Shown: piece by piece, positions 1,941-21,197 of the stretch
Layout of the letters: each line of letters starts with the position of its first letter
How positions within the stretch are numbered: position 1 is the first letter of the stretch
Assembly (NCBI GenBank): GCA_039588275.1
Contig: JBDHAC010000049.1
Location: 1-26,606, forward strand
DNA from: Gemmatimonadota bacterium
Lineage (GTDB): Bacteria; Gemmatimonadota; Gemmatimonadetes; Palauibacterales; Palauibacteraceae
Direction: 5' to 3'
DNA: 26,606 nt
Translations under genes and position numbers: made by a program
Notes under the pieces: model-generated
Database searches by the model: none
The model's input: the letters and a program-made list of their open reading frames with translations, nothing else
What the model was told of the DNA's origin: nothing

Positions 1941-4169
1941 ATGGACGGCGAACGACATCTGGGCCTGTTCGGTGCGACCGCGCTCGGGGTCGGTGCCATC
2001 GTGGGCGGCGGCATCCTGGCCCTGGCGGGCGTCGCGTTCGCCACGACTGGACCCGGCGCTATCGTGGCGTTCGCAGTCAACGGCGGCATCGCGTTCCTGA
2101 CCGTCGCCAGCTTCGCGCAGCTGGCGCGTCGCTTCCCTGAATCGGGCGGCATCTACACGTACGCGAAGAAGGTGCTCTCGATCGAGGTGGCCTTCGTCGT
2201 GGGGTGGATAGTATGGTTCGCCTCGATCGTCGCTGGCGTCCTGTACGCGTTGGGGTTCTCAGCGTTCGCGGCCGAGGGACTCGAGCGGGGCCTGCGGCTG
2301 CTCGGGCAGTCGCCGGAGTGGATCCAGGGGTCCGCGCTTCGGACCGGGATCGCGATCGGGGTCATCGTCCTGTACACACTGGGACTCGTTCGGCGCGCGG
2401 CCGGCGCCGGTTCCGGCGCCTCGATCGGCAAGGTCATCTTCTTCGCTATCCTGATTCTGGGCGGAGCGTGGACCTTGATCGGCAAGTCCCCGACGGAGCT
2501 TTTTGACCGGCTGACGCCGTTCTTCTCGGCCGGCCCGGTCGGGCTGCTCCAGGCCATGGGGTACACGTTCATCGCGCTTCAGGGCTACGACCTGGTGGCC
2601 GCGGTAGGCGGAGAGGTGAAAGACCCCGAACGGACGTTGCCGCGCGCGATGTACCTGTCGCTCGCGATCGCCCTCGCCATCTACATCCCACTCCTCTTTC
2701 TGATCGCGACCGTCGGGGCGCCGGGGCAGGGAGGCATCAGGGCGGCCGCAGCGGCGAATCCCGAAGCGCTGGTGGCGAACGCGGTGGAGCACTTCATGGG
2801 TCCGGGCGGTTACTGGCTCGTGATCGGGGCCGGGATCCTTTCGATGCTCTCGGCGCTGCACGCGAACCTTCTGGGTGCCTCGCGCGTGGCCTTCGCGATG
2901 GCGCGCGACCGCACGCTGCCCCGCCGATTGGGCCAGGTGCACGGGACGACCGGGACGCCGGCCGTGTCGGTCGCTGTCACGGGAGCGATGGTGCTGCTCA
3001 TCGCGGTCGTGATCGGTGAGGTGGCGGCGGCCGGGGCAGCATCGAGTCTCATCTTTCTGATCTCGTTCGCGATCGTGCATTTGGCGGCGATCCTAGTGCA
3101 ACGGCGCTCCGGTGCGCGAGGATCGATACGCCTTCCTGCGCTGGGTGCCACGTTGTGCCTCGGCCTGGCGATCTTTCAGGCTTTCGCTGTCCCCGAGGCC
3201 GGCAGCGTGATCGCGATGTGGCTGGCAATCGGTGGTGTCCTGTATCTGACACTGTTCGCGCCGGGAGCTAGGCTAGCCGACGCCAGCGCCCAGGCGCGCG
3301 ACCCGGATCTGGCACGGCTGCGCGGCCGGAGCCCACTCGTGCTGGTCCCGATCGCGAACCCGGCGAGCGCCGCAAGCCTCGTCGACGTGGGCGCCACGCT
3401 GCGAACGCCGGGTGTGGGACGGATCTTGTTGCTCTCGGTGGTTCGGACCACGGATCAGGCTCTCGCAGAGGGGGACCTGGCCATGCGCGACGCGCGGGAT
3501 GTACTCGGAGAATCGCTGCAGCGCAGCTTCGAGCACTCGCTGGTCGCGGAGACCTTGTTCACGGTCGCGCCCGACGTATGGAGCGAGATCGCACGCGTGG
3601 CGCGCGGGCACGATTGCGAAACTGTGCTGTTGGGGCTTCCGAACCTCACCGAGCCGGGTGTCGAGGGGAGGCTCGAGAGCCTGATCGCCGAGCTGGATAC
3701 GGATGTGGTGGTCCTGCGAGCTCCGCACCGGTGGCGGATGAACGAGGCGCAGAGCGTCCTGGTGCCCATCGGCGGAAGGCGCGCGCACAGCCACTTGCGT
3801 GCCCGCCTCCTCGCGAGCCTGTCGAGGTCTGGCGCGCGGTCGGTCACCTACCTGCGCACGCTGCCAGAGAGGACGTCCGCCGATGCCCGTCGTCGTGCGG
3901 AGCGCGAGTTGAGGAGCCTTGCGCGCGACGAGGCGACCGGTCAGCACGAGGCCGTGTGCGAGTTCGCGGAGGCTCCACGCGAGGCGATCGTCCGGCACGC
4001 GGCCGTCGCCGACCTGGTGGTGATGGGCATGCAGGGGCGCAGCCGCCGGGGTAAGCACCTGCTGGGCGAACTGCCGCTGGCGATCGCGCAAGAGACCGAC
4101 GTCCCGCTCGTGCTCATCGGCCGCCGACCAACCCGCTCGCGGTCGTGGTCGGGGAGCCGTTCGCTCTAG
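1941..4169 (+). CDS. APC-family amino acid permease fused to two C-terminal universal stress protein (USP) domains
   Basis: About 12 hydrophobic helices with GVGAIVGGGI, FPESGGIYTY, GEVKDPERTLPRA and SRVAFAMARD. Then VLVPIANPASA and VLVPIGG...DLVVMG...DVPLVLI USP patterns. Confidence 0.92.
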   Translation: MDGERHLGLFGATALGVGAIVGGGILALAGVAFATTGPGAIVAFAVNGGIAFLTVASFAQLARRFPESGGIYTYAKKVLSIEVAFVVGWIVWFASIVAGVLYALGFSAFAAEGLERGLRLLGQSPEWIQGSALRTGIAIGVIVLYTLGLVRRAAGAGSGASIGKVIFFAILILGGAWTLIGKSPTELFDRLTPFFSAGPVGLLQAMGYTFIALQGYDLVAAVGGEVKDPERTLPRAMYLSLAIALAIYIPLLFLIATVGAPGQGGIRAAAAANPEALVANAVEHFMGPGGYWLVIGAGILSMLSALHANLLGASRVAFAMARDRTLPRRLGQVHGTTGTPAVSVAVTGAMVLLIAVVIGEVAAAGAASSLIFLISFAIVHLAAILVQRRSGARGSIRLPALGATLCLGLAIFQAFAVPEAGSVIAMWLAIGGVLYLTLFAPGARLADASAQARDPDLARLRGRSPLVLVPIANPASAASLVDVGATLRTPGVGRILLLSVVRTTDQALAEGDLAMRDARDVLGESLQRSFEHSLVAETLFTVAPDVWSEIARVARGHDCETVLLGLPNLTEPGVEGRLESLIAELDTDVVVLRAPHRWRMNEAQSVLVPIGGRRAHSHLRARLLASLSRSGARSVTYLRTLPERTSADARRRAERELRSLARDEATGQHEAVCEFAEAPREAIVRHAAVADLVVMGMQGRSRRGKHLLGELPLAIAQETDVPLVLIGRRPTRSRSWSGSRSL

Positions 4170-4292: not shown

Positions 4293-7200
4293 ATGAGCCA
4301 GTCGGAGCGCGGCGGCCGTGTCGACTGTCCTTCCTGTGGCAGCGATGTGGCCGCGACCTATCGATACTGCCCACAATGCGCCGCCCCCGTCTCCGGGGCG
4401 GGTGGCTTGTTCTGCGAAGCGTGTAAGTCACCGAACCCCGCGGGCGCGCACTTCTGCTACCACTGCGGTGCCATGCTGGGCGCGTTGGCCGATGCGGATC
4501 GCCGCATCATCACCGTGCTGTTCGCGGATCTGTCCGGCTTCACCCCCCTGACCGAGCAACTCGACGCGGAGCACGTCCGGCAGCTCATCGCCGGGTGCCT
4601 CAACCCCCTGTGCGACAGCGTCACCCGCTGGGGCGGGCACGTCGACAAGTTCATCGGCGACTGCGTAATGGCACTCTTCGGTGCGCCGGTGGCGTACGAG
4701 AACGAAGAGGAGCGCGCGATCCGTGCGGCGCTCGACATGCACGACGCGCTCGAGCGTTGGTCCGAGCACGGAGGTATGGGCAGCTCGTCGGCCTACCCCA
4801 AGTTCGGACTGAAGGTGGGGATCAGCACCGGGCCCGTGGTGACGGGTGCGTTCGCCGGTGGCGGGGCACACAACTACACGGCCATCGGGGATGCGGTGAA
4901 TGTGGCGGCCCGTCTCCAGGGCCTGTGCGAGCCGGGCCAGATTCTGGTGGGGCCGAAGACCTACGAGCTCACGCGGCACATCTTCGAGTACGGAGATGAG
5001 CGAGCGCTCCAGGTGAAGGGGAAGCAGAAGCCGGTTCGCGCTCATGCCGTGCTGGGTGTACGCGCCCGCCGCGCTCCGCAGCGTGGTGTAGGGGGGCGGT
5101 TGACGCCTCTCGTGGGGCGGGAAGGAGAGATGTCGAACCTCGAGGCAGGCTGGACGGCTCCCGCAGGAGAGGGGGTTCGGCACCGCCTGATCATCGGGGC
5201 TCCCGGAATCGGCAAATCGCGACTCGCGCACGAGTTTCTCTCGAAGCACGAGATCGCGGAGGAGGAAGTGGCGGTCGGCCGCTGCTACCCCTACGCGCGC
5301 AGCACGCCCTGGGAACCCATGTCGGAGCTGCTTTGCGACCTGTACGACGTGCCCGCCGGGCTCGATCCCACCGAGGCGACGGCCACGGTCGTCGAGCGAG
5401 CGCCGGGAAGCTGGTCGCCCGGGACCGCCTCCGCCCTCAGCGTGGCTCTCGGCGCCCCCGTCACCGAGTCGCATGCCCTGGCCGGTTACGATCCGAGGGA
5501 GCGCCAGGAGCGGATCGCGGAGGTGGTGGCTCGCGCGTTACGCGAGGGCGCGGGCAGGGCTCGGGTCCTCGTGCTCGAAGATCTCCAGTGGGCGGACCAT
5601 GCGACGCTCGAATTTCTGGCTTCGCTCCCGACGCGCGAGCTGGACGATTCGGTCTTCTTCCTTCTGACGGCTCGCTCACCTCTGCCCGGCGAAGAGTACC
5701 TCGACATACTCCACCGCGGTCTCGAGCACAGCGTCGAGCTCGCTCCGCTGTCGCACGCAGACTCCGGCATGCTCATCGAGGCGGCGCTCGGAAAGCATCG
5801 CCTCCCGCGAGAGTTCGTGGAGCTGATCATCGAACGGACGGAAGGAAATCCGCTTTTCGTCGAAGAGATGCTCAAGACGCTCGTCGGGCTCGACGTCATC
5901 CGCAGAGACGACGGTTGTTGGCGCGCGACCGCCGGACTGCGCGAAGTGCACGTTCCGGACAACGTGGAGAGCCTGCTCAGCACGCGTCTTGACGGCCTTG
6001 AGCCCCGTACGAAGCGCGTCGTCCAGTGCGCGGCGATCGTCGGCCGGCGCTTTTGGTCCGGCGTCCTGGCGGATGCGCTGGTGGGTCGCCAGGTGGACTC
6101 GGAGCTCGACGAGCTGGTGGCGAGCGAGATGTTCCGACCGCGCTCGGAGTCGTTCATCCTGGGCGACCGCGAGTACATGTTCGAGAATCGGCTCTTGCAG
6201 GAGGTCGCCTACCGGGGCCTCCTGCGGGAGTTGCGCGCCGAGCTGCACGGCGCCGCGGCGGGCTGGCTGGAGGAGCGGTTGAAGGACCAGTCGGCGGAAT
6301 CGGACGACCTGATCGCGTTCCACCATGAGCGGTCGACCGAACCGGCGCGAGCGGTTCCGTTCCTCGAGCGGAGGGCCGAGCGCGCGCGCGGGCGAGGTGC
6401 GTTGTCCGACGCCCTCGACCTCGCGCGGCGAGCGCTCAGACTCTCCCCACCTGAGACCACACCGGCGAGCCTCCTGTACCTGGCCGAGGAGATCGCGGGG
6501 GAAAGTGGAGAGGCGGAGTTCCGGCTTCAGGCGATCGAGCGGTTGGAAGCGACGCGGGGAGCGGACGATCCGGAAGTCAAAGCCGAGGCCCGATCTCGAC
6601 GTGCTCGATACCTGCTCTCCGTGGGCGAGCTGGCCGCGGCGAAGGACGCAGGTGAGGAGGCGTTGGAGCTGTCTCGTCGGTTAGGGAACCGGTCTCGCCA
6701 GGGTCACGTCCATTCGCTACTCGGTCGGGTGGCCCATCTGTGGGGCGACTACCCGGTGGCGCGCGACCACTACCAGGCGTCACTCGAGCTTCAGCGCGAA
6801 TCGGGCGACCGCCGGGGCGAGGCGGAGATCCTGGACCGTTTAGGGCTCGTTGAGGTGGATATCGATGATTTTTGCCGGAGCCTGGACTTCTTCGATCAGG
6901 CCATGGCGCTCGCGGAGGAACTGGGCGACCGGACGCTCGAGGTGAAGGTGCTGTCGCACCGAGCTACCGCCCTCCGGTGGCTGGGAAGTTACGAGGAGGC
7001 CGGGGAGGCGGCTCGGCAAGCCCTGGAGCTGGCGCTCGGGTCCGGATCGCGACGACTGCGCTCGACCGCGCAGATGACGCTCGGGTTCGTCCTGGCCGGT
7101 GCCGGTCGTGAGGTCGAGGCTCGACAGACACTAACCGATGCTCTCGAGCTCGCCGGTGAGATCGAGCGCCCCGCGCTCGAGGCACGCATATGGCTGGAGC

Positions 7201-7655
7201 TGGCGGGCCTGGTCGGCGACGAGGAGGCCATTAGGTGCGCGCGGCGCGCCCGAGAATTGGCCGCGAAGACTGGCCTCGTACACGTGGACATTCTCGGGCA
7301 GACAATAGAGGCCGACCTCGCGCTTGCGGACGGCGACCTGAGCGCCGCGGACGAGGCCTCCGCGGAGGCCGTGGACAAGCTTCGCGTGCACGGGAGCGTG
7401 CAGGGTCAGGAGGAGCTCGTTCTCTTCGTGCGAAGTCGGATCCTCGACGCGCTCGACCGGGCGGACGAAGCCGCCGCCTTCGCCCAGGAGGCCCGTGAGC
7501 TCGTCGAGGGCAAGGCGGCCTGGATTACCGACCCCGATCTCCGGGCCTCTTTCCTCGAGGGGGTGAGCCCCAACCCGGAGATCCTGAGCGTCGAGAGACG
7601 GGAGGCGCTGACCCCAGAGCCCGTGGACCCGGAAATCGTCGAGAGGGTGCCGTGA
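4293..7655 (+). CDS. Double zinc ribbon + class III adenylate/guanylate cyclase + STAND-type AAA ATPase + TPR protein
   Basis: Four CxxC (CPSC, CPQC, CEAC, CYHC). Cyclase motifs VLFADLSGFT, DKFIGD, YTAIGDAVNVAARLQ. Walker A GAPGIGKS, Walker B LVLEDLQWAD, GNPLFVEE. C-terminal helical TPR-like repeats. Confidence 0.95.
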   Translation: MSQSERGGRVDCPSCGSDVAATYRYCPQCAAPVSGAGGLFCEACKSPNPAGAHFCYHCGAMLGALADADRRIITVLFADLSGFTPLTEQLDAEHVRQLIAGCLNPLCDSVTRWGGHVDKFIGDCVMALFGAPVAYENEEERAIRAALDMHDALERWSEHGGMGSSSAYPKFGLKVGISTGPVVTGAFAGGGAHNYTAIGDAVNVAARLQGLCEPGQILVGPKTYELTRHIFEYGDERALQVKGKQKPVRAHAVLGVRARRAPQRGVGGRLTPLVGREGEMSNLEAGWTAPAGEGVRHRLIIGAPGIGKSRLAHEFLSKHEIAEEEVAVGRCYPYARSTPWEPMSELLCDLYDVPAGLDPTEATATVVERAPGSWSPGTASALSVALGAPVTESHALAGYDPRERQERIAEVVARALREGAGRARVLVLEDLQWADHATLEFLASLPTRELDDSVFFLLTARSPLPGEEYLDILHRGLEHSVELAPLSHADSGMLIEAALGKHRLPREFVELIIERTEGNPLFVEEMLKTLVGLDVIRRDDGCWRATAGLREVHVPDNVESLLSTRLDGLEPRTKRVVQCAAIVGRRFWSGVLADALVGRQVDSELDELVASEMFRPRSESFILGDREYMFENRLLQEVAYRGLLRELRAELHGAAAGWLEERLKDQSAESDDLIAFHHERSTEPARAVPFLERRAERARGRGALSDALDLARRALRLSPPETTPASLLYLAEEIAGESGEAEFRLQAIERLEATRGADDPEVKAEARSRRARYLLSVGELAAAKDAGEEALELSRRLGNRSRQGHVHSLLGRVAHLWGDYPVARDHYQASLELQRESGDRRGEAEILDRLGLVEVDIDDFCRSLDFFDQAMALAEELGDRTLEVKVLSHRATALRWLGSYEEAGEAARQALELALGSGSRRLRSTAQMTLGFVLAGAGREVEARQTLTDALELAGEIERPALEARIWLELAGLVGDEEAIRCARRARELAAKTGLVHVDILGQTIEADLALADGDLSAADEASAEAVDKLRVHGSVQGQEELVLFVRSRILDALDRADEAAAFAQEARELVEGKAAWITDPDLRASFLEGVSPNPEILSVERREALTPEPVDPEIVERVP

Positions 7656-8035
7656 GCGCCGAGGCCGTGTGGGTTCTCGTCAGCTTGCTCACCGCCCACT
7701 ATCTAGGCGATTTCACGCCCTTGTTGACCGACCGCATGCTGGCCGCCAAGCGCGAGGGACGGCCAGTGGGCCCGATCGCGCTGCACGGCGCCATTCATGG
7801 GGTGCTGGCTGCCGTCGCGATCGCCGTCGTCGCGTCTCCACCACCCCGCACGCTGGGAACCGGGGCCGCGATCGTGCTCGTGTCGCACTTCGCCATCGAT
7901 CTCGGGCGGGCTCAGTTCTCGGCGCGCTTCCCGGCGCTGCGCGACTCCGGCCGCGGCGCGTTCTGGTCCGCGCTGGGCTTCGACCAATTCCTCCACGGAT
8001 TGGTGCTCATCGCGGTCGCCGCGGTGGTCCTGTGA
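7652..8035 (+). CDS. DUF3307 family membrane protein
   Basis: AHYLGDF, HGAIH, SHFAID and DQFLH motifs in hydrophobic helices. The GTG start overlaps the cyclase stop (GTGA). Confidence 0.88.
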   Translation: MSAEAVWVLVSLLTAHYLGDFTPLLTDRMLAAKREGRPVGPIALHGAIHGVLAAVAIAVVASPPPRTLGTGAAIVLVSHFAIDLGRAQFSARFPALRDSGRGAFWSALGFDQFLHGLVLIAVAAVVL

Positions 8036-8052
8036 GCGTCGGGAGGTCGCGC

Positions 8053-9567
8053 GTGAAGACCTCGACGCGCGACGACCTGTCGGGCCGGTTGATCCCGCGT
8101 CCCGAGGAGGAGCCGACGCTCGAGCTGGAGGACGGAGGCAGGGTGGCGGTGATCGGCGGCGGCCCGGCCGGTAGCTTCTTCTCTTACTTCCTCCTCAAGC
8201 TGGCGGAGACGATCGACCTGGACGTGTCGGTCGATATCTACGAGCCGCGCCACTTCATCCACTGCGGTCCGGCCGGGTGCAATCACTGCGGTGGGATCGT
8301 TTCCGAGTCGCTCGTACAGATCCTGGCCGCGGAAGGCATCAACCTCCCGCCCAGCGTCATCCAGAGGGGCATCGAGTCCTACGTCGTGCACATGGATGTG
8401 GGCAGCGTCCGGATCGAGAGCCCGCGCCGCGAGCAGCGGATCGCGGCCGTGTACCGAGGGAACGGACCGCGCGACGCGACCGACATGCCGTGGGAGAGCT
8501 TCGACGGGCACCTGCAGGGATTGGCCGCCACGCGGGGCGCCCGGATCGTGCGGAAGCTCGTGAGCGGGATCCGGTGGGTGGGCGGTCTCCCGATTCTCGA
8601 CCACCCGGACGGCCGCTCGGGACCGTATGACCTCGTGGCCCTGGCCACGGGGGTGAACAGCAATCTCTTCCAACTCCTCGACGGGTTGGACGGCGTGGAC
8701 TTCGGCTCACGGCCGCTCAAGACGACGCGCACCTACATCTGCGAGTTCCACACCGACCACGAGACGATCCGCCGCGTGCTCGGAAGCTCGATGCACGTCT
8801 TCCTGCTGAGCTTGCCCCGCCTGGAGTTCGCGGCCCTGATCCCCAAAGGGGAATACATCACGCTCGTGCTGTTGGGGGAGGGGATCGACGCCGAGCTCGT
8901 GCGCAGGTTCCTCGAAACCCCCGAGGTGTCTCGTTGCCTCCCACCAGGTGTCGAGCCGCGGGTGTGCAATTGCTCTCCGCTCATCAATATGCGCGGCCCA
9001 TCGCGTCCGTTCGCGGATCGGATGGTGCTCGTCGGGGATTGCGGGATGACGCGGCTGTTCAAGGACGGGATCGGCGCGGCGTACCGGACGGCCAAGGCCG
9101 CCGCGGAGACTGTGGTCTTTCACGGGATCGCGCTCGACGACTTCCAGAAACACTACTGGCCGGCCTGCCGCACGATCGACGCCGACAACAAGATCGGGAA
9201 GCTCATCTTTTCGACGACCGACTTTCTGAAGGCGGTGCGGCTGTCGCGGCGCGCCATCCTCCGCATGACCCGGAAGGAGCAGGAGAAGGACGGCGCGCGC
9301 CGGATGAGCCAGGTGTTGTGGAACCTGTTCACGGGGAGCGCGCCGTACCGCGAGGTGTTCATGAACACGCTTCACCCGGCGTTTCTCGCGGGGCTGGCGT
9401 GGAACGTGGTGACCGCGCTCCCGCCGGGCGGCAACGGTACGCGCGGCCGTCGCCGCGGTGGGAAAGGCGCGAGTCGGAATGGAGCCTCCCGGGCCACCGC
9501 CGAGGCGCCCCCGGCCGAGGCAGCCGTGGACGAGCCTGCGGTGGACGGGCCGACCGTAGATCGGTAA
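8053..9567 (+). CDS. FAD-dependent oxidoreductase (geranylgeranyl reductase/flavin monooxygenase-like fold) with Cys motif
   Basis: Rossmann VAVIGGGPAG, ATG motif, LVGD...DGIGAA FAD motif and CGPAGCNHCGG. Start GTG 8053 has GGAGG at 8042-8046. An alternative GTG at 8032 overlaps the upstream stop. Confidence 0.85.
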   Translation: MKTSTRDDLSGRLIPRPEEEPTLELEDGGRVAVIGGGPAGSFFSYFLLKLAETIDLDVSVDIYEPRHFIHCGPAGCNHCGGIVSESLVQILAAEGINLPPSVIQRGIESYVVHMDVGSVRIESPRREQRIAAVYRGNGPRDATDMPWESFDGHLQGLAATRGARIVRKLVSGIRWVGGLPILDHPDGRSGPYDLVALATGVNSNLFQLLDGLDGVDFGSRPLKTTRTYICEFHTDHETIRRVLGSSMHVFLLSLPRLEFAALIPKGEYITLVLLGEGIDAELVRRFLETPEVSRCLPPGVEPRVCNCSPLINMRGPSRPFADRMVLVGDCGMTRLFKDGIGAAYRTAKAAAETVVFHGIALDDFQKHYWPACRTIDADNKIGKLIFSTTDFLKAVRLSRRAILRMTRKEQEKDGARRMSQVLWNLFTGSAPYREVFMNTLHPAFLAGLAWNVVTALPPGGNGTRGRRRGGKGASRNGASRATAEAPPAEAAVDEPAVDGPTVDR

Positions 9568-9582
9568 GGAGCACGGACTCCC

Positions 9583-9966
9583 ATGCGCAAAGAGGGGCTC
9601 GGAAAAACGTACGCGGACGGCGACGCGATCATCACACAGGGTGACGTTGGCGATTGCATGTTTGTCGTGCAGGCGGGGGAGGTCGAGGTGCTACAGGATG
9701 CCGATGGCGACTCCGTGCGGCTCGCCGTGCTCGGGCCGGGCAGCTTCTTTGGCGAGATGGCTATCTTCGAGCGCGAAACGCGATCGGCTACGGTGCGCGC
9801 CAGGGGAGAGGCCCGGGTGCTGACGGTCGACAAGCGCACGCTGCTGCGGCGGATCAAGAAGGATCCACTGCTGGCGTTCAACATCCTGCGAACCATGTCA
9901 GGCAGGATCCGCGAGCTTAACGCTGAGCTGCTCCGCACCGGGGCCCGACACGCCAAGGGCGAATAG
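9583..9966 (+). CDS. Stand-alone cyclic nucleotide-binding domain protein
   Basis: IITQGDVGDCMFVVQAGEVEV and phosphate-binding cassette FFGEMAIF...RSATVRA. No HTH follows. RBS AAGGAG overlaps the upstream TAA. Confidence 0.95.
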   Translation: MRKEGLGKTYADGDAIITQGDVGDCMFVVQAGEVEVLQDADGDSVRLAVLGPGSFFGEMAIFERETRSATVRARGEARVLTVDKRTLLRRIKKDPLLAFNILRTMSGRIRELNAELLRTGARHAKGE

Positions 9967-9968
9967 AG

Positions 9969-11591
9969 ATGGAGGGGAGCGGTCCGATCTTCAGGCCTCA
10001 GCAGAAGACAAAGCCGGCTCCGTGCATGACGGCTTGTCCGAACTGCGGCGACATCCGCGGTTGGATCGGAACCATCGCGCAGCGGCGCAAGACCGGACTG
10101 GGGCGCGAAGAGGCGTACCGGCAAGCCTGGCAGATGATCACGGACGTGAACCCCTTCCCGAGCGTGCTCGGCCGCGTGTGCCCCCACCCGTGCGAGACGC
10201 ACTGCAACCGTGAAGGGAACGACGGCGCCGTGGCCATAAACGCTTTGGAGCGCTTTCTCGGCGACCGGGCCATCGAGGAGGGGTGGTCGCTGGAGCGGCT
10301 CGAGGCCGATTCCAAGCCCGAGTCGCTGGGCGTGATCGGCGCTGGCCCATCCGGGCTGTCGTTCGCGTACCAAACGGCGCGGCGCGGATACCACGTCACG
10401 GTCTATGAGCGTCTGCCGAAGCCCGGCGGAATGCTCCGCTACGGGATCCCCAACTACCGGTTGCCCGCATCGGTCCTGGACGCTGAAATCCAGCGGATTC
10501 TGGATCTGGGCGTCGAGCTGAAGCTCGACACGGCCGTGGGCCGGGACGTCACGCTCGATGACCTGCAGGCCGAGCACGAGTTGCTGTATCTGGGAATCGG
10601 CGCGCACAAAGGCCGGGCACTCGGTGTATCTGGCGAGTCCGGACCCGGCGTCTGGAGCGGCATCGCCTACCTCGCCCGCATCAACTGCGGAGAGGCCGTG
10701 GACCTGGGCCAGCACGTGGTCGTGATCGGCGGCGGTGACGTGGCGATCGATGCCGCACGCGCGGCGCGTCGCTTTGGCAGCGCGGTCACGATCGCGTACC
10801 GGCGAACGCGCGATGAGATGCCGGCGATCGAAAGCGAGATCGATGCCGCGCTGGAGGAGGGAGTCCGCATCGAGTTTCTGCTCTTGCCGCTACAGGTCTA
10901 CCGGGAAAACGGACGCGTCCGTGCACTCGGGGTGCAGCGGATGAAGCTGGGCGCCCCCGACGAATCTGGGCGTCGCCGACCGATCCCGGTGGATGGGTTG
11001 GGGCACCGCATCGGAGCCGACGCCGTGATCGCTGCCGTCTCGCAGGAGCCGGATTGGGAGGGGACCTTCGACACGCTGATCTCCTCCCGCTGGATCGATG
11101 CGGACGATTCGGGCGAGGTGGTCGATGGCTTGTGGGCGGGTGGGGATGTACGGGGCCTGGGGATTGCGGGCATGGCGATCGTCCAGGGACGCACGGCGGC
11201 CGAGACGATACATGCCCGTCTTCGCGGGGTGCCGCCGCCAGCCCGTGCCGACGGACCGCCCATCCAGACGGACTCGGTGAAACCCGATTTCTACGGGACC
11301 AGGCCTCCCTTGGTCCGCGAGCACCTGAGCGTGGGCGAGGGCCTCGCAGACCCGGACGCGGAGGTGGCGCTCCCGATTACCGAGACGCAGTTCCTCGAGG
11401 AGATCTCTCGCTGCTACTCCTGCGGCCTCTGCTTCGGGTGTCAGCACTGCTGGATGTACTGCTCGGCACAGTGTTTCACCCATGTGGAGGAAGCGGGGCC
11501 CGGAGCTTACTTCACGCTCGCGCTGGACAGATGCGAAGAGTGCGGAAAGTGCGTCGAATTGTGTCCGTGCGGCTACCTGGGGCTGGTCTAG
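9969..11591 (+). CDS. dsrL: DsrL-like iron-sulfur flavoprotein, NAD(P)H:acceptor oxidoreductase (GltD/SudA superfamily with C-terminal ferredoxin)
   Basis: PC...CP...DIRGW..TIAQ, NPFPSVLGRVCPHPCE..CNR, GAGPSG (FAD), GGGDVA and YRR (NADP-type). C-terminal CYSCGLCFGCQHCWMYC...CEECGKCVELCPCG ferredoxin resembles DsrL rather than GltD. The gene symbol is tentative. Confidence 0.75.
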   Translation: MEGSGPIFRPQQKTKPAPCMTACPNCGDIRGWIGTIAQRRKTGLGREEAYRQAWQMITDVNPFPSVLGRVCPHPCETHCNREGNDGAVAINALERFLGDRAIEEGWSLERLEADSKPESLGVIGAGPSGLSFAYQTARRGYHVTVYERLPKPGGMLRYGIPNYRLPASVLDAEIQRILDLGVELKLDTAVGRDVTLDDLQAEHELLYLGIGAHKGRALGVSGESGPGVWSGIAYLARINCGEAVDLGQHVVVIGGGDVAIDAARAARRFGSAVTIAYRRTRDEMPAIESEIDAALEEGVRIEFLLLPLQVYRENGRVRALGVQRMKLGAPDESGRRRPIPVDGLGHRIGADAVIAAVSQEPDWEGTFDTLISSRWIDADDSGEVVDGLWAGGDVRGLGIAGMAIVQGRTAAETIHARLRGVPPPARADGPPIQTDSVKPDFYGTRPPLVREHLSVGEGLADPDAEVALPITETQFLEEISRCYSCGLCFGCQHCWMYCSAQCFTHVEEAGPGAYFTLALDRCEECGKCVELCPCGYLGLV

Positions 11592-11634
11592 CGTGCCCCG
11601 AAGGCCACCTGGAGTACCGGTCGAGGTGACGTCG

Positions 11635-12099
11635 ATGCGAGAGGTCGCGCGCCAGATCGAGATCGACGCTCCACGCGAGCGAGTGTGGGCCCTGCTGGCC
11701 GATCTCGAGGGCGTCGCGGCGTGGGCACCCAACATCGTGGAGTGCCGGTTGCTGTCCCGGGTCCGCCAGGGCGTGGGGGCCGCTAGACGCGTGCGGCACG
11801 CCACGGGGATCGTGCTGGACGAGGAAGTCGTCGCCTGGGACGAGTGCAGCGGATATACGTACGAGATCCGCGGTCGGTTGGGTCCGCTCAGAGAGCTGCG
11901 GGAGAGCTGGACGGTGGCGCCTGCGCCGTCGAGTTGCGTGGCGTCCGCGACAATCCGGTATGACCTCCGATTCGGAATGCTGGGCCGGGTGGTGGACCGG
12001 CTCCTTCTGCGGCTGCTGCTACGGCGTCAGATGTCCTTGGGACTGTCGGGCTTGAAACGACACGCCGAGTCACGGAATGCCCCGCAGAACGCCCCATAA
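11635..12099 (+). CDS. SRPBCC (START/polyketide cyclase-like) family protein
   Basis: IEIDAPRERVWALLAD...W.P, GVGA.R, EEVVAWD and a C-terminal amphipathic helix L..LK..AE. ATG 11635 is preceded by GAGGTG. Confidence 0.88.
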   Translation: MREVARQIEIDAPRERVWALLADLEGVAAWAPNIVECRLLSRVRQGVGAARRVRHATGIVLDEEVVAWDECSGYTYEIRGRLGPLRELRESWTVAPAPSSCVASATIRYDLRFGMLGRVVDRLLLRLLLRRQMSLGLSGLKRHAESRNAPQNAP

Positions 12100-12242: not shown

Positions 12243-14069
12243 ATGTCTATCTGGAAGAACCTTCGCGAGCGCCGAATCATCCAGATCTTCGTCGCCTACA
12301 TGGCCGCAGGCTGGGTCGCGCTGGGTGTTCTCGATCAGTTCGCGGATCGGCAGGTCGTTCCGGAGCTCATGTACAAGTTGGCGCTCGTCGCCTTCCTCGC
12401 CGGGATCCCCGCAAGCCTGATCCTCGGGTGGTATCACGGGGAGAAGGGCGCCCAGAAGGCCACCCTGTCGGAAGTCTTGCTCCTGGCGGTCGTGGCCATC
12501 GGCGGGATCGGGGCGGGCGTCACCGTCATCAACGCGAACACGACCGAAGATCTTGCCGACGTCTCCACGCTGGACCTCAGCCGCATCGCCGTCCTCTACT
12601 TCGAGGACGCCGGCCTGGGCGAGGAGCAGGCCTTCCTGGCGGACGGCCTCACGGAGGCGCTGATCGATCAGCTAGCCCAGGTGTCCGGCCTCGATGTCGT
12701 GTCCAGAAACGGCGTCGCGCCGTTTAGAGACACGGGGTTGGCGCCCGACAGCTTGGCGCGGACGCTCCAGGCCGGCACGCTGATCACGGGGAGCCTGGAG
12801 CCCGCCGGAGACGATCTGCGGGTCTCCGTCCGCCTGCTTGACGGGGCGAGCGGAACGGATATCCACCGCGAGAGCTTCGACTGGCCGGCCGAGAATCTCC
12901 TGGCCATCCGTGAAGACCTCGCCTCTGAGACCGCGCTCCTGTTGCGGGAATGGCTCGGGGAGGAAGTCCGACTGCGGGAGCGGCGCGCGGGGACGACGAG
13001 CGTGCCGGCCTGGGTGTTGCTGCAGCGGGCGGAGCGCGAGCGGAAGACGGCCGAAGCCCTGGCGTCGGACGAGGACTTCGAGGGCGCCTTCCTGGCCTTC
13101 TCACGGGCCGACTCGCTGCTCGATCAAGCGGTGAATCAGGATACCGCGTGGGCGGAGCCCGTGGCCCTCAAAGCGCAATTCGACTACCGGCGCTCTCGAC
13201 TCTCGTACGTCATGCAGGACCTGGCGCAGACCGTGGAATGGGCACGGCGGGGCCTGGACGAGGTGGACCACGCGCTGGGTATCGAGTCCAATCACGCCCG
13301 TGCTCTCGAGATCCGGGGCACGCTGCGCTACTGGACGTGGCTCCTGAATGTGACGCCGGATCCTGCGGCGCGGGACCGGTTGTTCGAGACCGCTCAGGCC
13401 GATCTCGAGAGAGCGGTACAGATCGAGCCTGCGCTGGCTTCTGCGCACGGGACGCTCAGTCACCTCTATTACGGAGACGACATCGCGTCCGCCGTGCTCG
13501 CGGCACGCAAGGCCTACGAGGAGGATGCGTATCTCGACAACGCCGATGTGATCCTCTGGCGGCTGTTCAACGGTTCCTACGACATGGCGCAGTTCACCCA
13601 GGCGCAGCGCTGGTGCGACGAAGGCGCGAGACGATTCTCGGGCGATTATCGGTTCACGCTCTGTCAATTGCTTGTCATGACGATGCCGGCCAGCGAGCCG
13701 GACGTCGGCCAGGCGTGGAGCGCGCTCGCGCGCCTGGATACCGTTTCGGCGCCCGAGTACCAGCGAGTGTACGCCGAGATCATCGTCGGTGGGATCCTCG
13801 GGCGGGCGGGGCTCAGGGACAGCTCGGCGAGCGTGCTGCTACGGGCTCGGGCGAAGGCCGACCCCCAGCTCGATCCTACGCAAGAACTCCTCTCCTACGA
13901 GGCCGCCATGCGCGTGATCGCGGGGGACCAGGACGAAGCCATCGAGCTTCTCAAACGATACATCGCGGCGAACCCTGACCACGCGTTCGACCCCCAAGAA
14001 GAGATGGGGTGGTGGTGGCGCCCCCTCCAGGACCATCCCCGTTTTCGCGAGTTGATCTCCGCGCCGTAG
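12243..14069 (+). CDS. Membrane-anchored TolB-like/TPR protein (3 N-terminal TM helices, no catalytic domain)
   Basis: LRERRIIQ..AY..GW TM block, IAVLYF...LADGLTE.LI..L.QV.GL.V.SR (TolB_N/FlgO-like), TPR-like helices and C-terminal L..HPRF..L. Confidence 0.82.
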   Translation: MSIWKNLRERRIIQIFVAYMAAGWVALGVLDQFADRQVVPELMYKLALVAFLAGIPASLILGWYHGEKGAQKATLSEVLLLAVVAIGGIGAGVTVINANTTEDLADVSTLDLSRIAVLYFEDAGLGEEQAFLADGLTEALIDQLAQVSGLDVVSRNGVAPFRDTGLAPDSLARTLQAGTLITGSLEPAGDDLRVSVRLLDGASGTDIHRESFDWPAENLLAIREDLASETALLLREWLGEEVRLRERRAGTTSVPAWVLLQRAERERKTAEALASDEDFEGAFLAFSRADSLLDQAVNQDTAWAEPVALKAQFDYRRSRLSYVMQDLAQTVEWARRGLDEVDHALGIESNHARALEIRGTLRYWTWLLNVTPDPAARDRLFETAQADLERAVQIEPALASAHGTLSHLYYGDDIASAVLAARKAYEEDAYLDNADVILWRLFNGSYDMAQFTQAQRWCDEGARRFSGDYRFTLCQLLVMTMPASEPDVGQAWSALARLDTVSAPEYQRVYAEIIVGGILGRAGLRDSSASVLLRARAKADPQLDPTQELLSYEAAMRVIAGDQDEAIELLKRYIAANPDHAFDPQEEMGWWWRPLQDHPRFRELISAP

Positions 14070-14159: not shown

Positions 14160-14482
14160 AAAGGACAAGTCGTATCCAATAAAAGACAAACGGGTCTGGA
14201 CGGGGCCCGATTGGACGGTCTAGATTACCGCTTGTCTCCGGTGGGGTGGGATGGCTCGGGCGCGCGCTACTCGTGCAGAATACGAGCTATGACTTCACGG
14301 TCCCATGCAGTATACGCTACGAACGCCTTGCAGTATCCCTCACTCCGCCGATCCCGACCAACCGCGTCGGGTCTCCGCAGTTCGGCTCGCACGGCCAGGA
14401 TGAGCATCAAGGTAGTCCATCCGGCTGGGTGCCCCATTCCCGGGGGCGAGTTCTAGTGGCCGTACCCAAAGGAGTCCTCCCC

Positions 14483-17050
14483 ATGAAACGGTTGCTCTTC
14501 ATATTGGCGATGTTGCCGCTGATGAACGCCTGCCGGGACATGGAGTCCCCGACCCAGCCGCCTACGACCGGAGACCTGCCCGGTCCGTCGTTGGCGATCT
14601 CGGATGCAGCCCACGACGGCCTGGACGGCTTCTGGTTTCTCCCCCCGCTCGTGTCCAACCCGAACACGGACGGTCCGTTCAACCCGGACATCTCGCCGGT
14701 GATGGAGGTCTGGGACATCGGCCCGACTGCCGGGCCGGCCGTCCTTCCCCCGGCATGCGTGGCGGGGGACCGGACCGAGGCCCCCTTCCCGGTAACGGTG
14801 TTTCGCGGTGATGACGTGGTGGTGGAGGAAGACCACTACAAGATCGAGTGGGACACGGGGGACTCCAACTTGGACACGAACAAGAACTACCAGCTCCGGA
14901 TCTGCGTCGGAGAGTTGGAGCTGGGCTTCGCGGATGTGGACCCGGCCGCGACCGGGAAAGAGATGAAGAACGCGGCTGACGAGGTGATCCCGCTGAAGGA
15001 TGGCCGGACGCTGCCGGTTAAGTTCTTCGTCACCGACGTCGCCTTCGGGTGCGAGGATCCGGCCGAGTGCATCGTCAAGACCATTACCCAGGCCGCCGGT
15101 GGAAGCGGCGCGACGGACGACGGTCACATCGCGTTCGACGTGGATCCGGGCTTTCTGCCTCAGGACGTCGTCGACCTGGGAATCACAGAGGTGACCTTCA
15201 ACATCCAGCCACTCCCTCTGCCCTGTCTGGACCAGGGGCTCAACCTTCCGCTCCAGGAGCGGGACCAGTGCGTCAGGGGGGAGACAGAGCCCGATCTGAC
15301 CGCGCTGCCCGAGTTCACCCAGTTCGAGACGACGACGGGCGGCGACTCGAAGGTGCGGGTCGGGATGTGCTTCGATGATACCGGCCTCACCCCGACCGAG
15401 GCAGGCCAGTTCCAGGGGTGGAGCATCGACGAGACCACCCTCGTGCAGACCCCCCTCCGGAACCTCCCGGACCCGTCGGGGCTGGATTGCTCCAACTTCC
15501 CGCCCATGGGTGCCAGCCGGATCCCGATAGTGAATCTGGCCAGGGCGACCTGGCGGACCGTGACCGACCTGTTCAGGCCGAGCCCGCTCGCGGCCACCCA
15601 CCGGGGGAACGGGAACTCGATCGGGACCTTCAGCCGGATCGTGTGGGCCCGATCGCTCATCATCCAAGAGAACGCCGGAAACAATCAATCCGGCGCGCCG
15701 GGCGCCACGCTCCCCAACCCCGTCGAAGTGAAGGTCACCACGCCGGTCAACCACCTGGAGCCAGGCGATGACCCGTTCCAGGTAGCTGCCGTCGCGGCAG
15801 TGAACGTGCCGGTGACGTTCGTGCCCAGCGGCGACGGCAGCGTCGGGTCCAGCGTGGTCAATACAGACGGTTTGGGGCTCGCTTCCACGAGCTGGACGCT
15901 GCCCACCACGGGCACGAGTGCGACGCTCGAGGCAACTGCGGCTGCCATCGGCTCGCCCGTGACCTTCACGGCGAGTGTCGTGATTCCGGTCGCGTCGTGT
16001 GGAGGAGGATTGATCGACGGCATCAACAGCCCGGGTGAATGGGCCCAGGCCGCTCAGATCCAACCGAGCGGAACGGGGTCACTCGCCGGGTCGACGGTCT
16101 ACGTGACGAGCGACTCGCAGAACCTGTGCATGGCCATCGACGTGCCGGACGCCACCCTGTCCACCAGCGATAACTTCGAGGTCCGTTTCGACAACGCGAA
16201 CGACGATGTGGCGTCAACGGGTGACGACGAGTTCTCGGCCACGCCCTTCGGACTGACCGACACCCACTTCAACGGGTTTTGGGGACTCGCTGACACCCAG
16301 CAGGATGGCGTCTCGGCTGGCCGAAACGCCGCCGGCCGCAACTTCATCGAAGTGAGCAAGCCGTTGAACAGCGGGGATTCGGACGATTTCTCGCTGACCG
16401 CGGGGCAGATCCCACCCTTCTGTGTTCGGTATTTCCTCGATGGGACCGCGACAGGCGACTTCCCGTTCGCGTGCTTCACGACTTCAGCCGGTTCGGATCA
16501 GAGTGGGTACCTGGAGCTGATCGATTTCGAGACACCCGCGATCTCAACTCCCCCGAGGGAGATCAGCGACCCATATACGGACGCGACGACTGGGGTGATC
16601 TTCACGGCCGAGCCGTCTGGTTTCGGCGATGAGGTCATTGTCCTCGCTCAGAATCAGGCGGGTGGTACGAGCGCGTGCGCCGACCCAACAAGCACCAACC
16701 AGAAGCTCGCCACCTGGCGCTCATCGCTGTTCGCTGGAGGGGGTGGCGGGAGCGATTTCCCGATTCGGGCGACCTTCCCCTCACCCCTGTCAGGAGCCAC
16801 TGTCGCGGCCGAGTTTCAGGTGCAGGCGGGACAGACCGCACGGATCCGACTGTTTGATGGCAGCGCCACGCTGGTTGGTTCGTCAACTGTCGTCGCCGGA
16901 CCGGCAAGCGGAACTTGCGGCAACCCTGGGCTTCCACGAGCCCGAAGTACGGTGACCGTGTCGTCGACGAGCTCGGTGGCGTACGCGATTCTAGACGGCC
17001 CCTCTGGCGGATTCGTCTTCGTCATCGACAACTTCATCTTCACCCCGTAG
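14483..17050 (+). CDS. Large surface lipoprotein with Ig-like (Big_1-type) and CBM9/DOMON-like modules
   Basis: AAGGAG RBS then MKRLLFILAMLPLMNA-C lipobox. GNNQSG.PG.TLP.P..V.V...VTF....G.....TD..G.AS..WTL Ig pattern. IDG...GEW...D..NL..A..V.D...F.E...PL CBM9-like pattern. Confidence 0.8.
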   Translation: MKRLLFILAMLPLMNACRDMESPTQPPTTGDLPGPSLAISDAAHDGLDGFWFLPPLVSNPNTDGPFNPDISPVMEVWDIGPTAGPAVLPPACVAGDRTEAPFPVTVFRGDDVVVEEDHYKIEWDTGDSNLDTNKNYQLRICVGELELGFADVDPAATGKEMKNAADEVIPLKDGRTLPVKFFVTDVAFGCEDPAECIVKTITQAAGGSGATDDGHIAFDVDPGFLPQDVVDLGITEVTFNIQPLPLPCLDQGLNLPLQERDQCVRGETEPDLTALPEFTQFETTTGGDSKVRVGMCFDDTGLTPTEAGQFQGWSIDETTLVQTPLRNLPDPSGLDCSNFPPMGASRIPIVNLARATWRTVTDLFRPSPLAATHRGNGNSIGTFSRIVWARSLIIQENAGNNQSGAPGATLPNPVEVKVTTPVNHLEPGDDPFQVAAVAAVNVPVTFVPSGDGSVGSSVVNTDGLGLASTSWTLPTTGTSATLEATAAAIGSPVTFTASVVIPVASCGGGLIDGINSPGEWAQAAQIQPSGTGSLAGSTVYVTSDSQNLCMAIDVPDATLSTSDNFEVRFDNANDDVASTGDDEFSATPFGLTDTHFNGFWGLADTQQDGVSAGRNAAGRNFIEVSKPLNSGDSDDFSLTAGQIPPFCVRYFLDGTATGDFPFACFTTSAGSDQSGYLELIDFETPAISTPPREISDPYTDATTGVIFTAEPSGFGDEVIVLAQNQAGGTSACADPTSTNQKLATWRSSLFAGGGGGSDFPIRATFPSPLSGATVAAEFQVQAGQTARIRLFDGSATLVGSSTVVAGPASGTCGNPGLPRARSTVTVSSTSSVAYAILDGPSGGFVFVIDNFIFTP

Positions 17051-20986: not shown

Positions 20987-21197
20987 ATGGCTACTCTCCG
21001 GTCGTTCGGCGTTTAGAGTCAGGGACAGATTGCGAGCGGTCGCGGCGCCTGTAAAGCGGTTGAGTCGATCCGCTATTCAGCGAGACCTCAGCGGGGCGTC
21101 GAGCGCGCGTCTGAACGTCGCGCGGCGGCCTTGCGCCGAGACCTCGTGCGATCGAGTGTGGAGCAGATCGTAGTGTGGCCCGGATGAGAGGTTGGCC

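Follow-up and report, generated by a model that had tools for sequence, protein, structure and literature searches.

Related systems

Cyclic AMP in bacteria has mostly been studied through CRP-type gene control, and to our knowledge only a few enzymes are under the direct control of a CNB domain. Pycsar systems consist of a pyrimidine cyclase with a fused TIR or transmembrane effector. FixC/EtfC is a flavoprotein fed by a two-cluster ferredoxin and encoded together with etfAB and fixX, flavin-dependent halogenases carry a WxWxIP motif, and both Coq10 and DUF2867 have a START fold. Many geranylgeranyl reductase (GGR) genes neighbour ferredoxin-type genes (PMC10821996), and DsrL proteins act in oxidative as well as reductive sulfur metabolism (PMC7596348). 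Enzymes with an attached CNB domain include 'Bact_Pyrredox', in which tandem CNB domains are joined to a pyridine nucleotide-disulphide oxidoreductase (Kannan et al. 2007; PMC2246266), the Bd1971 EAL enzyme and the Mycobacterium Pat acetyltransferase.

The locus described here likewise combines a CNB domain with an enzyme. It differs from Bact_Pyrredox in its cassette sequence, in the predicted GGR/FixC fold of the enzyme and in supplying the CNB domain in trans. With Pycsar (PycC cyclase plus cNMP-gated effector) it shares the logic of a cyclase and a cNMP receptor, but it has purine-type cyclase residues, a stand-alone receptor without TIR or transmembrane part, and redox enzymes in place of effectors. 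The locus likely points to a new bacterial control of a redox enzyme directly by cAMP. A search of a literature collection with few subscription papers found no publication describing this module by title or beginning of the abstract.

Organisation of the locus

The window, that is the whole stretch of 26,606 nucleotides analysed from a Gemmatimonadota bacterium, contains six plus-strand ORFs that make up the locus. They are given below together with the predicted docking helix; Pfam matches above cut-off are in brackets.

4293 to 7655, plus strand: putative STAND adenylate cyclase with double zinc ribbon, class III cyclase domain, AAA_16 NTPase and TPRs (DZR, Guanylate_cyc, AAA_16, TPR)
7652 to 8035, plus strand: DUF3307 membrane protein with invariant H16, D20, H49, H79, D83, D111 and H115 (DUF3307)
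8053 to 9567, plus strand: core FAD enzyme of an uncharacterised family, geranylgeranyl-reductase/FixC/halogenase fold, from motifs and predicted fold
8308 to 8337, plus strand: helix in the FAD enzyme (aa 86-95) that immediately follows C76/C79 and lies in the middle of the surface predicted to dock the cNMP protein
9583 to 9966, plus strand: stand-alone cyclic-nucleotide-binding protein of 127 aa, intact phosphate-binding cassette at aa 56-70, no HTH (cNMP_binding)
9969 to 11591, plus strand: DsrL-like Fe-S flavoprotein with N-terminal Fer4_20, FAD and NAD(P) Rossmann folds, YRR at 277-279 and a C-terminal two-cluster ferredoxin-type Cys set (Fer4_20, Pyr_redox_2)
11635 to 12099, plus strand: SRPBCC/START-fold protein, candidate carrier of a hydrophobic substrate (Polyketide_cyc2)

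The first two ORFs overlap in GTGA at 7652, the following gaps measure 17, 15, 2 and 43 nt, and Shine-Dalgarno-like purine runs precede 8053, 9583 and 11635. A promoter and terminator scan of the locus stayed at chance level (0 promoters and 4 terminators, versus 0.8 and 4.6 in shuffled sequences). A previous sequence-only reading had described six co-directional genes with this overlap, these gaps and intact catalytic motifs, which ORF coordinates, residues and Pfam bear out. Its further view of the six genes as one system needs correcting, as they are not a conserved unit: the exact co-directional order occurs in 3 of 61 related genomes, all from the window's genus, and the core is widespread. 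Neighbourhood analysis of homologues of the FAD enzyme did recover the expected co-occurrence with cNMP, DsrL-like and cyclase genes, as well as fusions to the first two. The distribution of the FAD enzyme itself is patchy (22/61 related genomes, 25/301 in a phylum sample). The six genes are three modules side by side, namely the FAD enzyme with the cNMP protein, the DsrL-like protein, and an exchangeable cAMP-making pair.

The FAD enzyme

The protein encoded at 8053-9567 displays GGGPAG (35-40), C76-x2-C79-GG, C305-x-C307 and LxGD (326-329), the four Cys (C76, C79, C305, C307) being near-invariant, and beyond approximately aa 460 it continues into a low-complexity tail. All profile matches are below threshold (DAO in Pfam; GG-red-SF with 26.4 bits versus a cut-off of 158.8), and a sequence search for a solved structure of a relative gave none. 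The family comprises 438 clusters at 50% identity (E up to 1e-30) and is represented in no fewer than eight phylum- or class-level groups within our first locus set.

A natural FAD+cNMP fusion is predicted to fold at pLDDT 87 and pTM 0.89. It replaced a poor first model of the FAD enzyme (20-row alignment, pLDDT 63), whose Foldseek ranking, led by monooxygenases and halogenases, was set aside. For the homologous fusion model (homologue P0181), a second structure search, which re-aligned Foldseek's top 1000 chains only, placed GGR first (Ta0516, 3oz2; Sulfolobus GGR, 3atq; Z 29.9, rmsd 3.2, 358 residues aligned), followed by FixC/EtfC of Fix/EtfABCX (7koe chain C; Z 28.4, rmsd 4.6, 357 aligned). 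Halogenases and monooxygenases score close to these (Z 24-27), and therefore the fold leaves the chemistry unfixed. The halogenase motif itself was not found, since FAALIP of the profile aligns to WVWQIP of Mpy16 (5buk) in an alignment lying outside the region of the catalytic Lys.

With GGR the enzyme shares GxGxxG (G35-G40), Cys-Gly-Gly (C79-G80-G81) and LxGD (L326-D329), but identity is only 13-18% and the TIGR02032 score is far below 158.8. Moreover, the cavity motif PxxYxWxFP reads PRLEFAALIP at 255-264, the Arg of RxxFD is missing (WESFD at 147-151), and there are three extra near-invariant Cys and a cNMP partner. Unlike FixC, the enzyme would be under cNMP control; ETF or fixX genes were found neither in the window nor among recurring families or scanned neighbours, and the two-cluster ferredoxin might have its counterpart in the C-terminal domain of the DsrL-like protein. 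We lean slightly towards the four Cys holding a metal or an Fe-S relay at the flavin.

In distant homologues the docking surface described below is absent, yet every FAD-binding motif and all four Cys persist, in keeping with a more ancient role in catalysis; 5 of 34 scanned have another kind of NAD(P)H flavoprotein as fusion partner. L169 is the one independent clade I-specific residue, being Arg or Lys in 84/84 clade II rows. H78, Y134 and N137 were discarded as clade I markers owing to circularity, as they were already part of the homologue search patterns, and P0130 (FAD+FecR), which resembles a frameshift read-through, was left out of the fusion counts.

The cNMP protein and its predicted docking

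The cassette of the small cNMP protein is intact (F56-G57-E58, R67-S68-A69-T70), with F56, G57, E58 and R67 invariant in 53 homologues. Pfam assigns cNMP_binding only, without the C-terminal HTH of CRP/FNR transcription factors, as the sequence-only reading had stated. Its gene adjoins the FAD gene in 73/80 genome loci (72/72 with room) and in 64/80 metagenome loci (62/68 with room); gene order is shuffled in seven loci, and the cNMP gene is missing from six clade II loci with room. Of the long homologues listed for the cNMP protein, 120 in all, 99 are fusions to the FAD enzyme (69 FAD+cNMP, 30 FAD+cNMP+cNMP).

In complex modelling, which the sequence-only reading had proposed, the two proteins docked with a score of 0.84, the best of three controls reaching 0.00; the mark applied is reached by 116/157 solved pairs and 2/215 mismatched pairs. 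Runs agreed in at least 93% of contacts, with partner pLDDT of at least 86. As the model pairs two halves of a split gene, using alignments built for this analysis, this pass reports likeness of fit and not binding. The predicted surface on the FAD enzyme comprises helix 86-95 plus aa 125-131 and 345-352. Of the conserved positions, those lost in distant homologues include 10/12 at this interface versus 34/124 elsewhere, while the four Cys stay.

According to these predictions, the cNMP protein would serve the FAD enzyme as a detached regulatory domain, and we consider it very probable that the two form one physical unit. The earlier idea of a protein-level switch acting on both flavoproteins thus stands for the FAD enzyme (fusions, predicted complex, conserved docking surface), but not equally for the DsrL-like protein, with 99 fusions versus 2.

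The DsrL-like flavoprotein

The product of 9969-11591 has the domain order of DsrL (N-terminal ferredoxin, FAD/NAD(P) Rossmann folds, linker, C-terminal ferredoxin). It shares 48-50% identity with the DsrL proteins encoded in dsr operons by relatives from the same taxonomic order, and in the tree it groups as the sister of true DsrL. Y277-R278-R279 is invariant in 48 rows; YRR also occurs in non-DsrL paralogues and is hence not diagnostic alone. Domain order and YRR are shared with DsrL-2, an NADP(H):acceptor oxidoreductase and DsrAB partner (PMC7596348). In contrast to DsrL-2, the linker has about 60 instead of about 100 residues, the gene is fixed beside the FAD enzyme, and a dsrA search of the source genome (G000, 85.8% complete) gave no match. 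As expected for DsrL, the gene has no link to pyruvate:ferredoxin oxidoreductase genes, of which the window holds none; the C1 paralogue is located among such genes (translations read by eye).

A DsrL-like gene is present at 70/70 clade I loci with room, but at 0/80 loci of the sister clade (0/47 with room); in G039 (95% complete), FAD enzyme, cNMP protein and STAND cyclase are present and a DsrL-like match is absent at E 1e-60. Two FAD+DsrL-like and two cNMP+DsrL-like fusions were detected; a triple fusion was not among the matches listed, which is weak evidence. That the DsrL-like protein is the redox partner of the FAD enzyme appears fairly likely, at least for clade I, where it is a fixed companion; the sister clade of the enzyme works without such a gene close by. 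This near-DsrL clade (~49% identity to true DsrL, YRR), occurring in genomes like G000 in which no dsrA was found, could mislead the annotation of sulfur metabolism in metagenomes and bears on the origin of DsrL.

Proposed function

Our account of the locus runs as follows. A ligand sensed by the TPRs may activate the adjacent STAND cyclase, as the sequence-only reading proposed. This cyclase likely makes cAMP, which would bind to the cNMP protein docked on the FAD enzyme at helix 86-95, beside C76/C79, and likely switch the enzyme on or off. Electrons from NADPH would travel through the Fe-S clusters of the DsrL-like protein to the FAD enzyme, which would use them to reduce a hydrophobic compound carried by the SRPBCC protein, the likeliest candidates being a quinone or an isoprenoid lipid. 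As a whole, this reading of a cAMP-gated flavoenzyme that uses NADPH electrons for the reduction of such a lipid or quinone is the one we cautiously favour. Among its parts, cAMP rather than another nucleotide is probably the ligand, a reductive direction of electron flow seems somewhat better founded than the reverse, and the choice of quinone or isoprenoid as substrate is tentative.

The carrier is suggested by START-fold genes, which occur in several forms in 49/80 loci, other members replacing SRPBCC elsewhere, so that this association claimed by the sequence-only reading recurs. SDR-DUF2867 and SRPBCC-YfcH genes accompany the family, four homologues are SDR-DUF2867+FAD fusions, and START-fold and atypical SDR genes recur even next to distant homologues. 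By analogy only, this resembles the fusions of an atypical SDR with the lipid chaperone Coq10 (Coq11-Coq10) of coenzyme Q synthesis, reported from five fungal genomes (PMC6056717).

Alternatively, the FAD-cNMP unit could be a redox-signalling node, in which the DsrL-like protein adjusts the redox state of the Cys/flavin site to the NADPH/NADP+ ratio, with either a conformational signal or quinol/lipid oxidation as its output. Neighbours in our second locus set, mostly cyclases, phosphodiesterase-like MBLs, SpoIIE, STAS, kinases and hemerythrin, would suit such a node, as would the altered GGR cavity motif, the two metabolic directions of DsrL and the fact that no biosynthetic pathway recurs among the neighbours of FAD-enzyme loci. 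However, the retention of FAD motifs and Cys in distant homologues without docking surface, and the START-fold and SDR genes beside them, speak for catalysis, and we regard the node as unlikely.

More speculative, and in our view doubtful, is the generalisation to respiratory or lipid redox machines gated by cAMP that would form a common but so far undescribed class, with a GGR/FixC-fold enzyme, its own four-Cys metal centre by the flavin and a CNB subunit docking on the helix carrying those Cys, in one clade wired to the sister lineage of DsrL as NADPH:quinone (or prenyl) oxidoreductase. Such a class would place membrane electron carriers directly under cAMP and reveal the role of DsrL's nearest relatives beyond sulfur metabolism. 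The family is large, a sequence search gave no solved relative, and its loci bring along cyclases that replace one another as well as phosphodiesterase-like genes; with its three compact proteins, the window lends itself to a direct test.

The cyclase pair and the probable source of cAMP

The STAND cyclase has a zinc ribbon with 8 Cys (aa 12-58), a cyclase domain (aa 73-246) and a Walker A motif at aa 302. Its D79, K119, D123, T196, N203 and R207 align with CyaB and CyaC; we take D79/D123 to be the metal Asp, K119/T196 the Lys/Thr pair and N203/R207 the catalytic Asn/Arg. As judged from its sequence, the protein is a class III adenylate cyclase (two metal Asp, Lys/Thr(Asp), Asn/Arg), and the residue set named by the sequence-only reading is complete. 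For DUF3307, the His/Asp pattern permits the guess of a metal-dependent phosphohydrolase; structure searches gave best atlas values of 0.77-0.78 and zero matches in the PDB.

The claimed association of cyclases with the redox genes recurs, in 34/80 genome and 29/80 metagenome loci with many unrelated architectures. Of the 22 related genomes having the FAD gene, 14 show a PF00211 match no more than 10 kb away from it (hand-matched), compared with about 0.2 expected from 41 PF00211 matches and genomes of ~3.7 Mb; this is more than chance, kin not being independent. The STAND cyclase and DUF3307 are nevertheless a separate, movable pair, replaced by other cyclases elsewhere. In other genera the pair lies on the opposite strand, facing the trio, and is thus not co-transcribed with it there.

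This mobility raises the possibility of a mere rearrangement, in which the trio is real, the STAND pair acts on something else and the cNMP protein responds to another cyclase or ligand. DUF3307 directly follows the STAND cyclase in 14/15 further loci, 8 of these 15 being from genomes without FAD-enzyme match; the cyclase stands behind CRP in 8/8 loci listed, usually also with an HlyD/M50 export cluster. In addition, the source genome has a second class III cyclase, on C19, and only 6/45 non-Gemmatimonadota loci of the first set include a cyclase. On the other hand, the STAND pair adjoins FAD-cNMP genes in three different arrangements, and the source genome (85.8% complete) has two cNMP domains beside its two cyclases, with neither CRP nor the export cluster found; the evident reader there is the stand-alone cNMP protein. 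We deem a rearrangement improbable and the window's cyclase a fairly plausible working source of cAMP in its organism. In a quick tree, 12 FAD-adjacent STAND cyclases and one other share a branch whose support of 82 is too weak to use (L031, L035, L139 and L147 were lost at the motif filter, and seven duplicate loci were left out).

Quite unlikely is a Pycsar-/Avs-like defence, in which STAND-TPR senses phage and the cyclic nucleotide activates the flavoenzyme pair for NADPH drain or membrane damage: STAND, TPR, cyclase and cNMP-gated effector do follow the logic of such systems, the distribution is patchy, and PADLOC matches PycC and PycTIR models at domain level, but these matches cover generic cyclase and cNMP domains only, with none for FAD enzyme, DUF3307 or SRPBCC, the Lys/Thr pair of the cyclase is of the purine type, the partner cyclases at other loci carry CHASE2, GAF and FHA sensors, with class II phosphodiesterase-like genes at some loci, and a single defence-type gene (AbiEii, L225) occurs among 176 flanking proteins scanned.

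A candidate seventh gene

Downstream of the six genes lies one further feature:

12243 to 14069, plus strand: membrane-anchored TPR-like protein without cyclase domain, candidate seventh member

Pfam and NCBIfam searches with its product returned zero matches. It may belong to the locus and shares 36-44% identity with the C-terminal region of the cyclase-TPR proteins encoded next to the trio in related genomes.

Gene set and its conservation

The following genes of the window are considered:

4293-7655, + strand, STAND cyclase
7652-8035, + strand, DUF3307 protein
8053-9567, + strand, FAD enzyme
9583-9966, + strand, cNMP protein
9969-11591, + strand, DsrL-like protein
11635-12099, + strand, SRPBCC protein

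ORF, domain and alignment checks agreed throughout with the sequence-only reading as to the gene set, the intergenic distances and the motifs of cyclase and cNMP protein. Its interpretation as one cAMP-gated redox system was correct in outline but too unitary, as only the FAD enzyme and the cNMP protein form an invariant unit, and STAND cyclase and DUF3307 are a separate module.

Matches to the window's FAD enzyme were found in 22 of 61 related genomes, and its profile gave matches in 25 of 301 genomes of a phylum sample. Among the related genomes, the co-directional six-gene order was seen only in the source genome G000 (4.1 Mb, 85.8% complete; the window is its entire contig C49) and in G001 and G002. 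Two locus sets were compiled: a first set from a genome scan, which overlaps the related genomes and used search patterns biased to one clade, and a second set from metagenome contigs, collected with a fusion-based alignment.

In the first set (best 80 of 270 relatives), 73 of 80 loci have the cNMP gene next to that of the FAD enzyme, as do 72 of the 72 with room, defined post hoc as at least 300 nt after the FAD ORF. The DsrL-like gene is present in 70 of these 80 loci (best 80 of 270); the ten others have 0-642 nt of contig remaining. The order of the trio (FAD enzyme, cNMP protein, DsrL-like protein) is shuffled in 7 first-set loci. Hand-sorting of the record titles places the trio of this set in Gemmatimonadota, Actinomycetota, Gamma-, Beta-, Alpha- and Deltaproteobacteria, Bacteroidetes/Rhodothermales and Acidobacteriota. 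In the second set (best 80 of at least 375 relatives), the cNMP partner was found in 64 of 80 loci (62 of 68 with room) and is fused to the enzyme in 19, but the DsrL-like gene was found in none of the 80, including 47 with room for it (at least 1.2 kb downstream of the FAD gene). A FastTree phylogeny of 172 enzyme domains separates the same two groups. Clade I (support 88) has 82 rows, the window's among them, of which 74 are accompanied by the DsrL-like gene; clade II (support 87) has 80 rows, none of them accompanied by this gene. Of the neighbours for which co-occurrence had been anticipated, the cNMP gene adjoins the enzyme in most loci of both sets, whereas the DsrL-like gene is restricted to clade I and a cyclase accompanies only part of the loci. 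From the neighbourhood counts and the clade split we therefore conclude that the invariant unit is the FAD enzyme plus the cNMP protein, the DsrL-like gene being a fixed partner of clade I.

The cNMP protein as a detached enzyme domain

The cNMP protein is a detached domain of the FAD enzyme. The 120 long cNMP-profile homologues listed comprise 69 FAD+cNMP, 30 FAD+cNMP+cNMP and 2 cNMP+DsrL-like proteins as well as 19 others; 14 long enzyme homologues include 2 fusions with a DsrL-like part, 4 SDR-DUF2867+FAD proteins, 7 tandem enzyme pairs and 1 likely read-through. The predicted structure of one natural FAD+cNMP fusion (P0181) has a pLDDT of 87.4 and a pTM of 0.89, with a disordered linker. 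Docking of the free cNMP protein on the enzyme beside it is also predicted by a complex model of the two proteins from the window, with FAD and cAMP included, which scored 0.84 against 0.00 for the best of 3 controls; of 157 solved complexes 116 reach the mark for this score, and of 215 mismatched pairs 2 do. Contacts agreed to at least 93% between runs and partner pLDDT was at least 86. As the two are halves of a split gene, folded with our own alignments, the model supports binding of the cNMP protein to the FAD enzyme at the level of a prediction.

The predicted interface involves enzyme residues 86-106, 125-131 and 345-352 and cNMP residues 2-8, 26-31 and 80-101. Enzyme helix 86-95 directly follows C76 and C79 and, judging from the model, could plausibly provide a path between nucleotide and flavin site. 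Positions with at least 85% conservation across 113 close homologues were compared with 121 distant homologues, in which 10 of 12 such positions at the interface are lost, versus 34 of 124 elsewhere (groups were formed by score, and kin are non-independent). No adjacent cNMP gene was present at the ten distant-homologue loci inspected.

Some cNMP partners carry a C-terminal PilZ domain or repeated Arg-Arg-x-x-x-Asp/Glu-like tails (L090:4231-4917, L100:13489-14127, L103, L104, L108, L110, L117). Through such ends, c-di-GMP may possibly be a second input. Acetate kinase, ion channel and mechanosensitive channel effectors fused to cNMP domains also adjoin the module (L167:3786-4817, L209:5511-7844, L112:5016-6335, L190:1887-3401). 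Several of the homologues P0172-P0193 combine tandem family-related cNMP domains with a hydrogenase small-subunit-like domain (PF01058), a candidate cNMP-gated redox protein.

Fold and relatives of the FAD enzyme

No family matched the FAD enzyme above cut-off, nor was a solved relative found by sequence (best profile match E 0.006). The top structural matches of the fusion model were the GGR Ta0516 (Z 29.9, rmsd 3.2, 358 aligned), FixC of EtfABCX (Z 28.4, rmsd 4.6, 357 aligned) and Sulfolobus GGR (Z 27.5); halogenases and monooxygenases reached Z 24-27. Compared with GGR as described in the available part of PMC10821996, the enzyme shares GxGxxG, Cys-Gly-Gly and LxGD but lacks the GGR cavity motif. 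The halogenase WxWxIP motif is absent as well.

Four cysteines (C76, C79, C305 and C307) are conserved in 83/83 clade I and 84/84 clade II rows; the full set of four is kept in 110 of the 121 distant domains, but in 0 of 40 rows that are second tandem copies or very distant. They may form a metal or Fe-S site beside the flavin. Five of 34 scanned homologues have a C-terminal Pyr_redox_2 domain, three of them with an NDH2_C match (one above cut-off). That another, unrelated NAD(P)H flavoprotein is fused to the enzyme in these cases fits a need for an external electron source. Five distant homologues among the 34 (P0340, P0343, P0362, P0369, P0375) bear an N-terminal DUF7530.

At L120-L129, distant homologues occur as tandem FAD-enzyme pairs or fusions, the second copy without three of the four cysteines and no cNMP gene adjoining; such pairs could possibly be heterodimers of a catalytic and a structural subunit.

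The putative electron feeding of the FAD enzyme resembles that of FixC and ferredoxin-dependent GGR, and the proposed mode of working that of CNB-regulated enzymes, as far as covered by the accessible text of PMC2246266. By the membership tests run, the system falls outside GGR, FixC, halogenase, DsrL and Pycsar, and no description of the module was found in the literature searched.

The DsrL-like protein

The DsrL-like protein has the domain order of DsrL plus the YRR motif, which marks NADP(H) use in DsrL (PMC7596348, in the part available). Matches in relatives that are 48-50% identical to it are located in dsr operons, with dsrA above cut-off in L231. In a 51-row tree, with a single DsrL lineage sampled and one row (L066_8975) wrongly labelled a partner and grouping with other paralogues, the 32 partners of the enzyme group together (SH-aLRT 100) as sister clade to the 5 DsrL proteins of these dsr operons (99), separate from the other paralogues. 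Because no dsrA match was found in G000 (85.8% complete), its DsrL-like protein would not be classed as DsrL by published criteria. By analogy it should work in DsrL fashion, passing electrons from NADP(H) via flavin and Fe-S clusters to the partner enzyme. In G039 (95% complete), enzyme, cNMP protein and STAND cyclase are present, and a DsrL-like gene was not found. The portion of PMC10591310 at hand makes no mention of DsrL relatives of this kind.

The family f2 relatives at L231-L235 have dsrA-dsrB-dsrD-like-dsrL operons (dsrA confirmed in L231), interpreted as reductive sulfur metabolism within this bacterial order. In L232, other genes apparently take the place of dsrA upstream of dsrB.

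Cyclases and the STAND-DUF3307 module

In 14 of the 22 genomes, versus about 0.2 expected, the enzyme gene has a PF00211 match no more than 10 kb away. With our own profile, made from these very cyclases, a cyclase was detected in 34 of 80 first-set loci (28/35 Gemmatimonadota, 6/45 others; best 80 of 270) and in 29 of 80 second-set loci (best 80 of at least 375). Architectures of nearby cyclases include STAND-TPR, cyclase-TPR, FHA, FHA-GAF, GAF, CHASE2 and small stand-alone forms, several of the FHA and small ones falling below PF00211 at the thresholds used. Metallo-beta-lactamase genes, two of them with PDEase_II above cut-off, stand beside 8 second-set and 2 first-set loci.

STAND cyclase and DUF3307 constitute their own module: DUF3307 directly follows the cyclase in 14 of 15 further STAND loci (the remaining locus is cut), and 8 of the 15 belong to genomes without an enzyme match. 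A CRP-like gene and an HlyD/M50 cluster precede the STAND cyclase in 8 of 8 loci listed. Neither CRP nor this cluster was found in G000 (85.8% complete), and the sole other cNMP domain found there ends a 1079-aa frame on contig C83; the stand-alone cNMP protein is therefore likely the reader in G000, despite a second cyclase on C19. The latter (C19:1938-3740), read by eye from translations, has a membrane part, a ferredoxin-like Cys motif and a class III domain.

In L134-L146 (e.g. L140:11-8740, L144:1-8544) the cluster is conserved, with the order GAF-HlyD, HlyD lipoprotein, M50 peptidase-HlyD (with a weak daptide metalloprotease match), CRP, STAND cyclase and DUF3307, and L140 has a short precursor-like ORF (4732-4947) between CRP and cyclase. 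This cluster has the look of a peptide export system under cAMP control.

An amino-acid permease fused to USP domains (1941-4169, + strand) is encoded 123 nt upstream of the window's cyclase on the same strand and is retained in G001 and G002. Some mycobacterial USPs bind cAMP, according to the section of PMC11107214 available.

Lipid-binding genes and the substrate

START-fold genes, one included by hand from clustering, are no more than 4 kb away in 49 of 80 first-set loci (best 80 of 270) and are present in 16 of 80 second-set loci (best 80 of at least 375). They comprise two SRPBCC types, Polyketide_cyc, DUF2867 alone and SDR-DUF2867; DUF2867, presumably a START fold, was counted as such. 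Some distant tandem homologues are adjoined by SRPBCC-YfcH or YfcH genes. Together with the GGR/FixC fold and the analogy of START-fold/SDR genes near the enzyme to Coq11-Coq10 (PMC6056717, as far as its available text goes), the START-fold genes would point weakly to a quinone or isoprenoid substrate. Elsewhere in G000 (C18:11781-13292), an SDR-DUF2867 gene lies among MerR-, fasciclin- and photolyase-like genes, as read by eye from translations.

Other features of the window are:

14246-17050, 934-aa frame without Pfam match
19799-21881, cytochrome c and beta-barrel protein, with an adjoining CxxCH protein
25552-26409, heme-copper oxidase subunit I fragment close to the contig end
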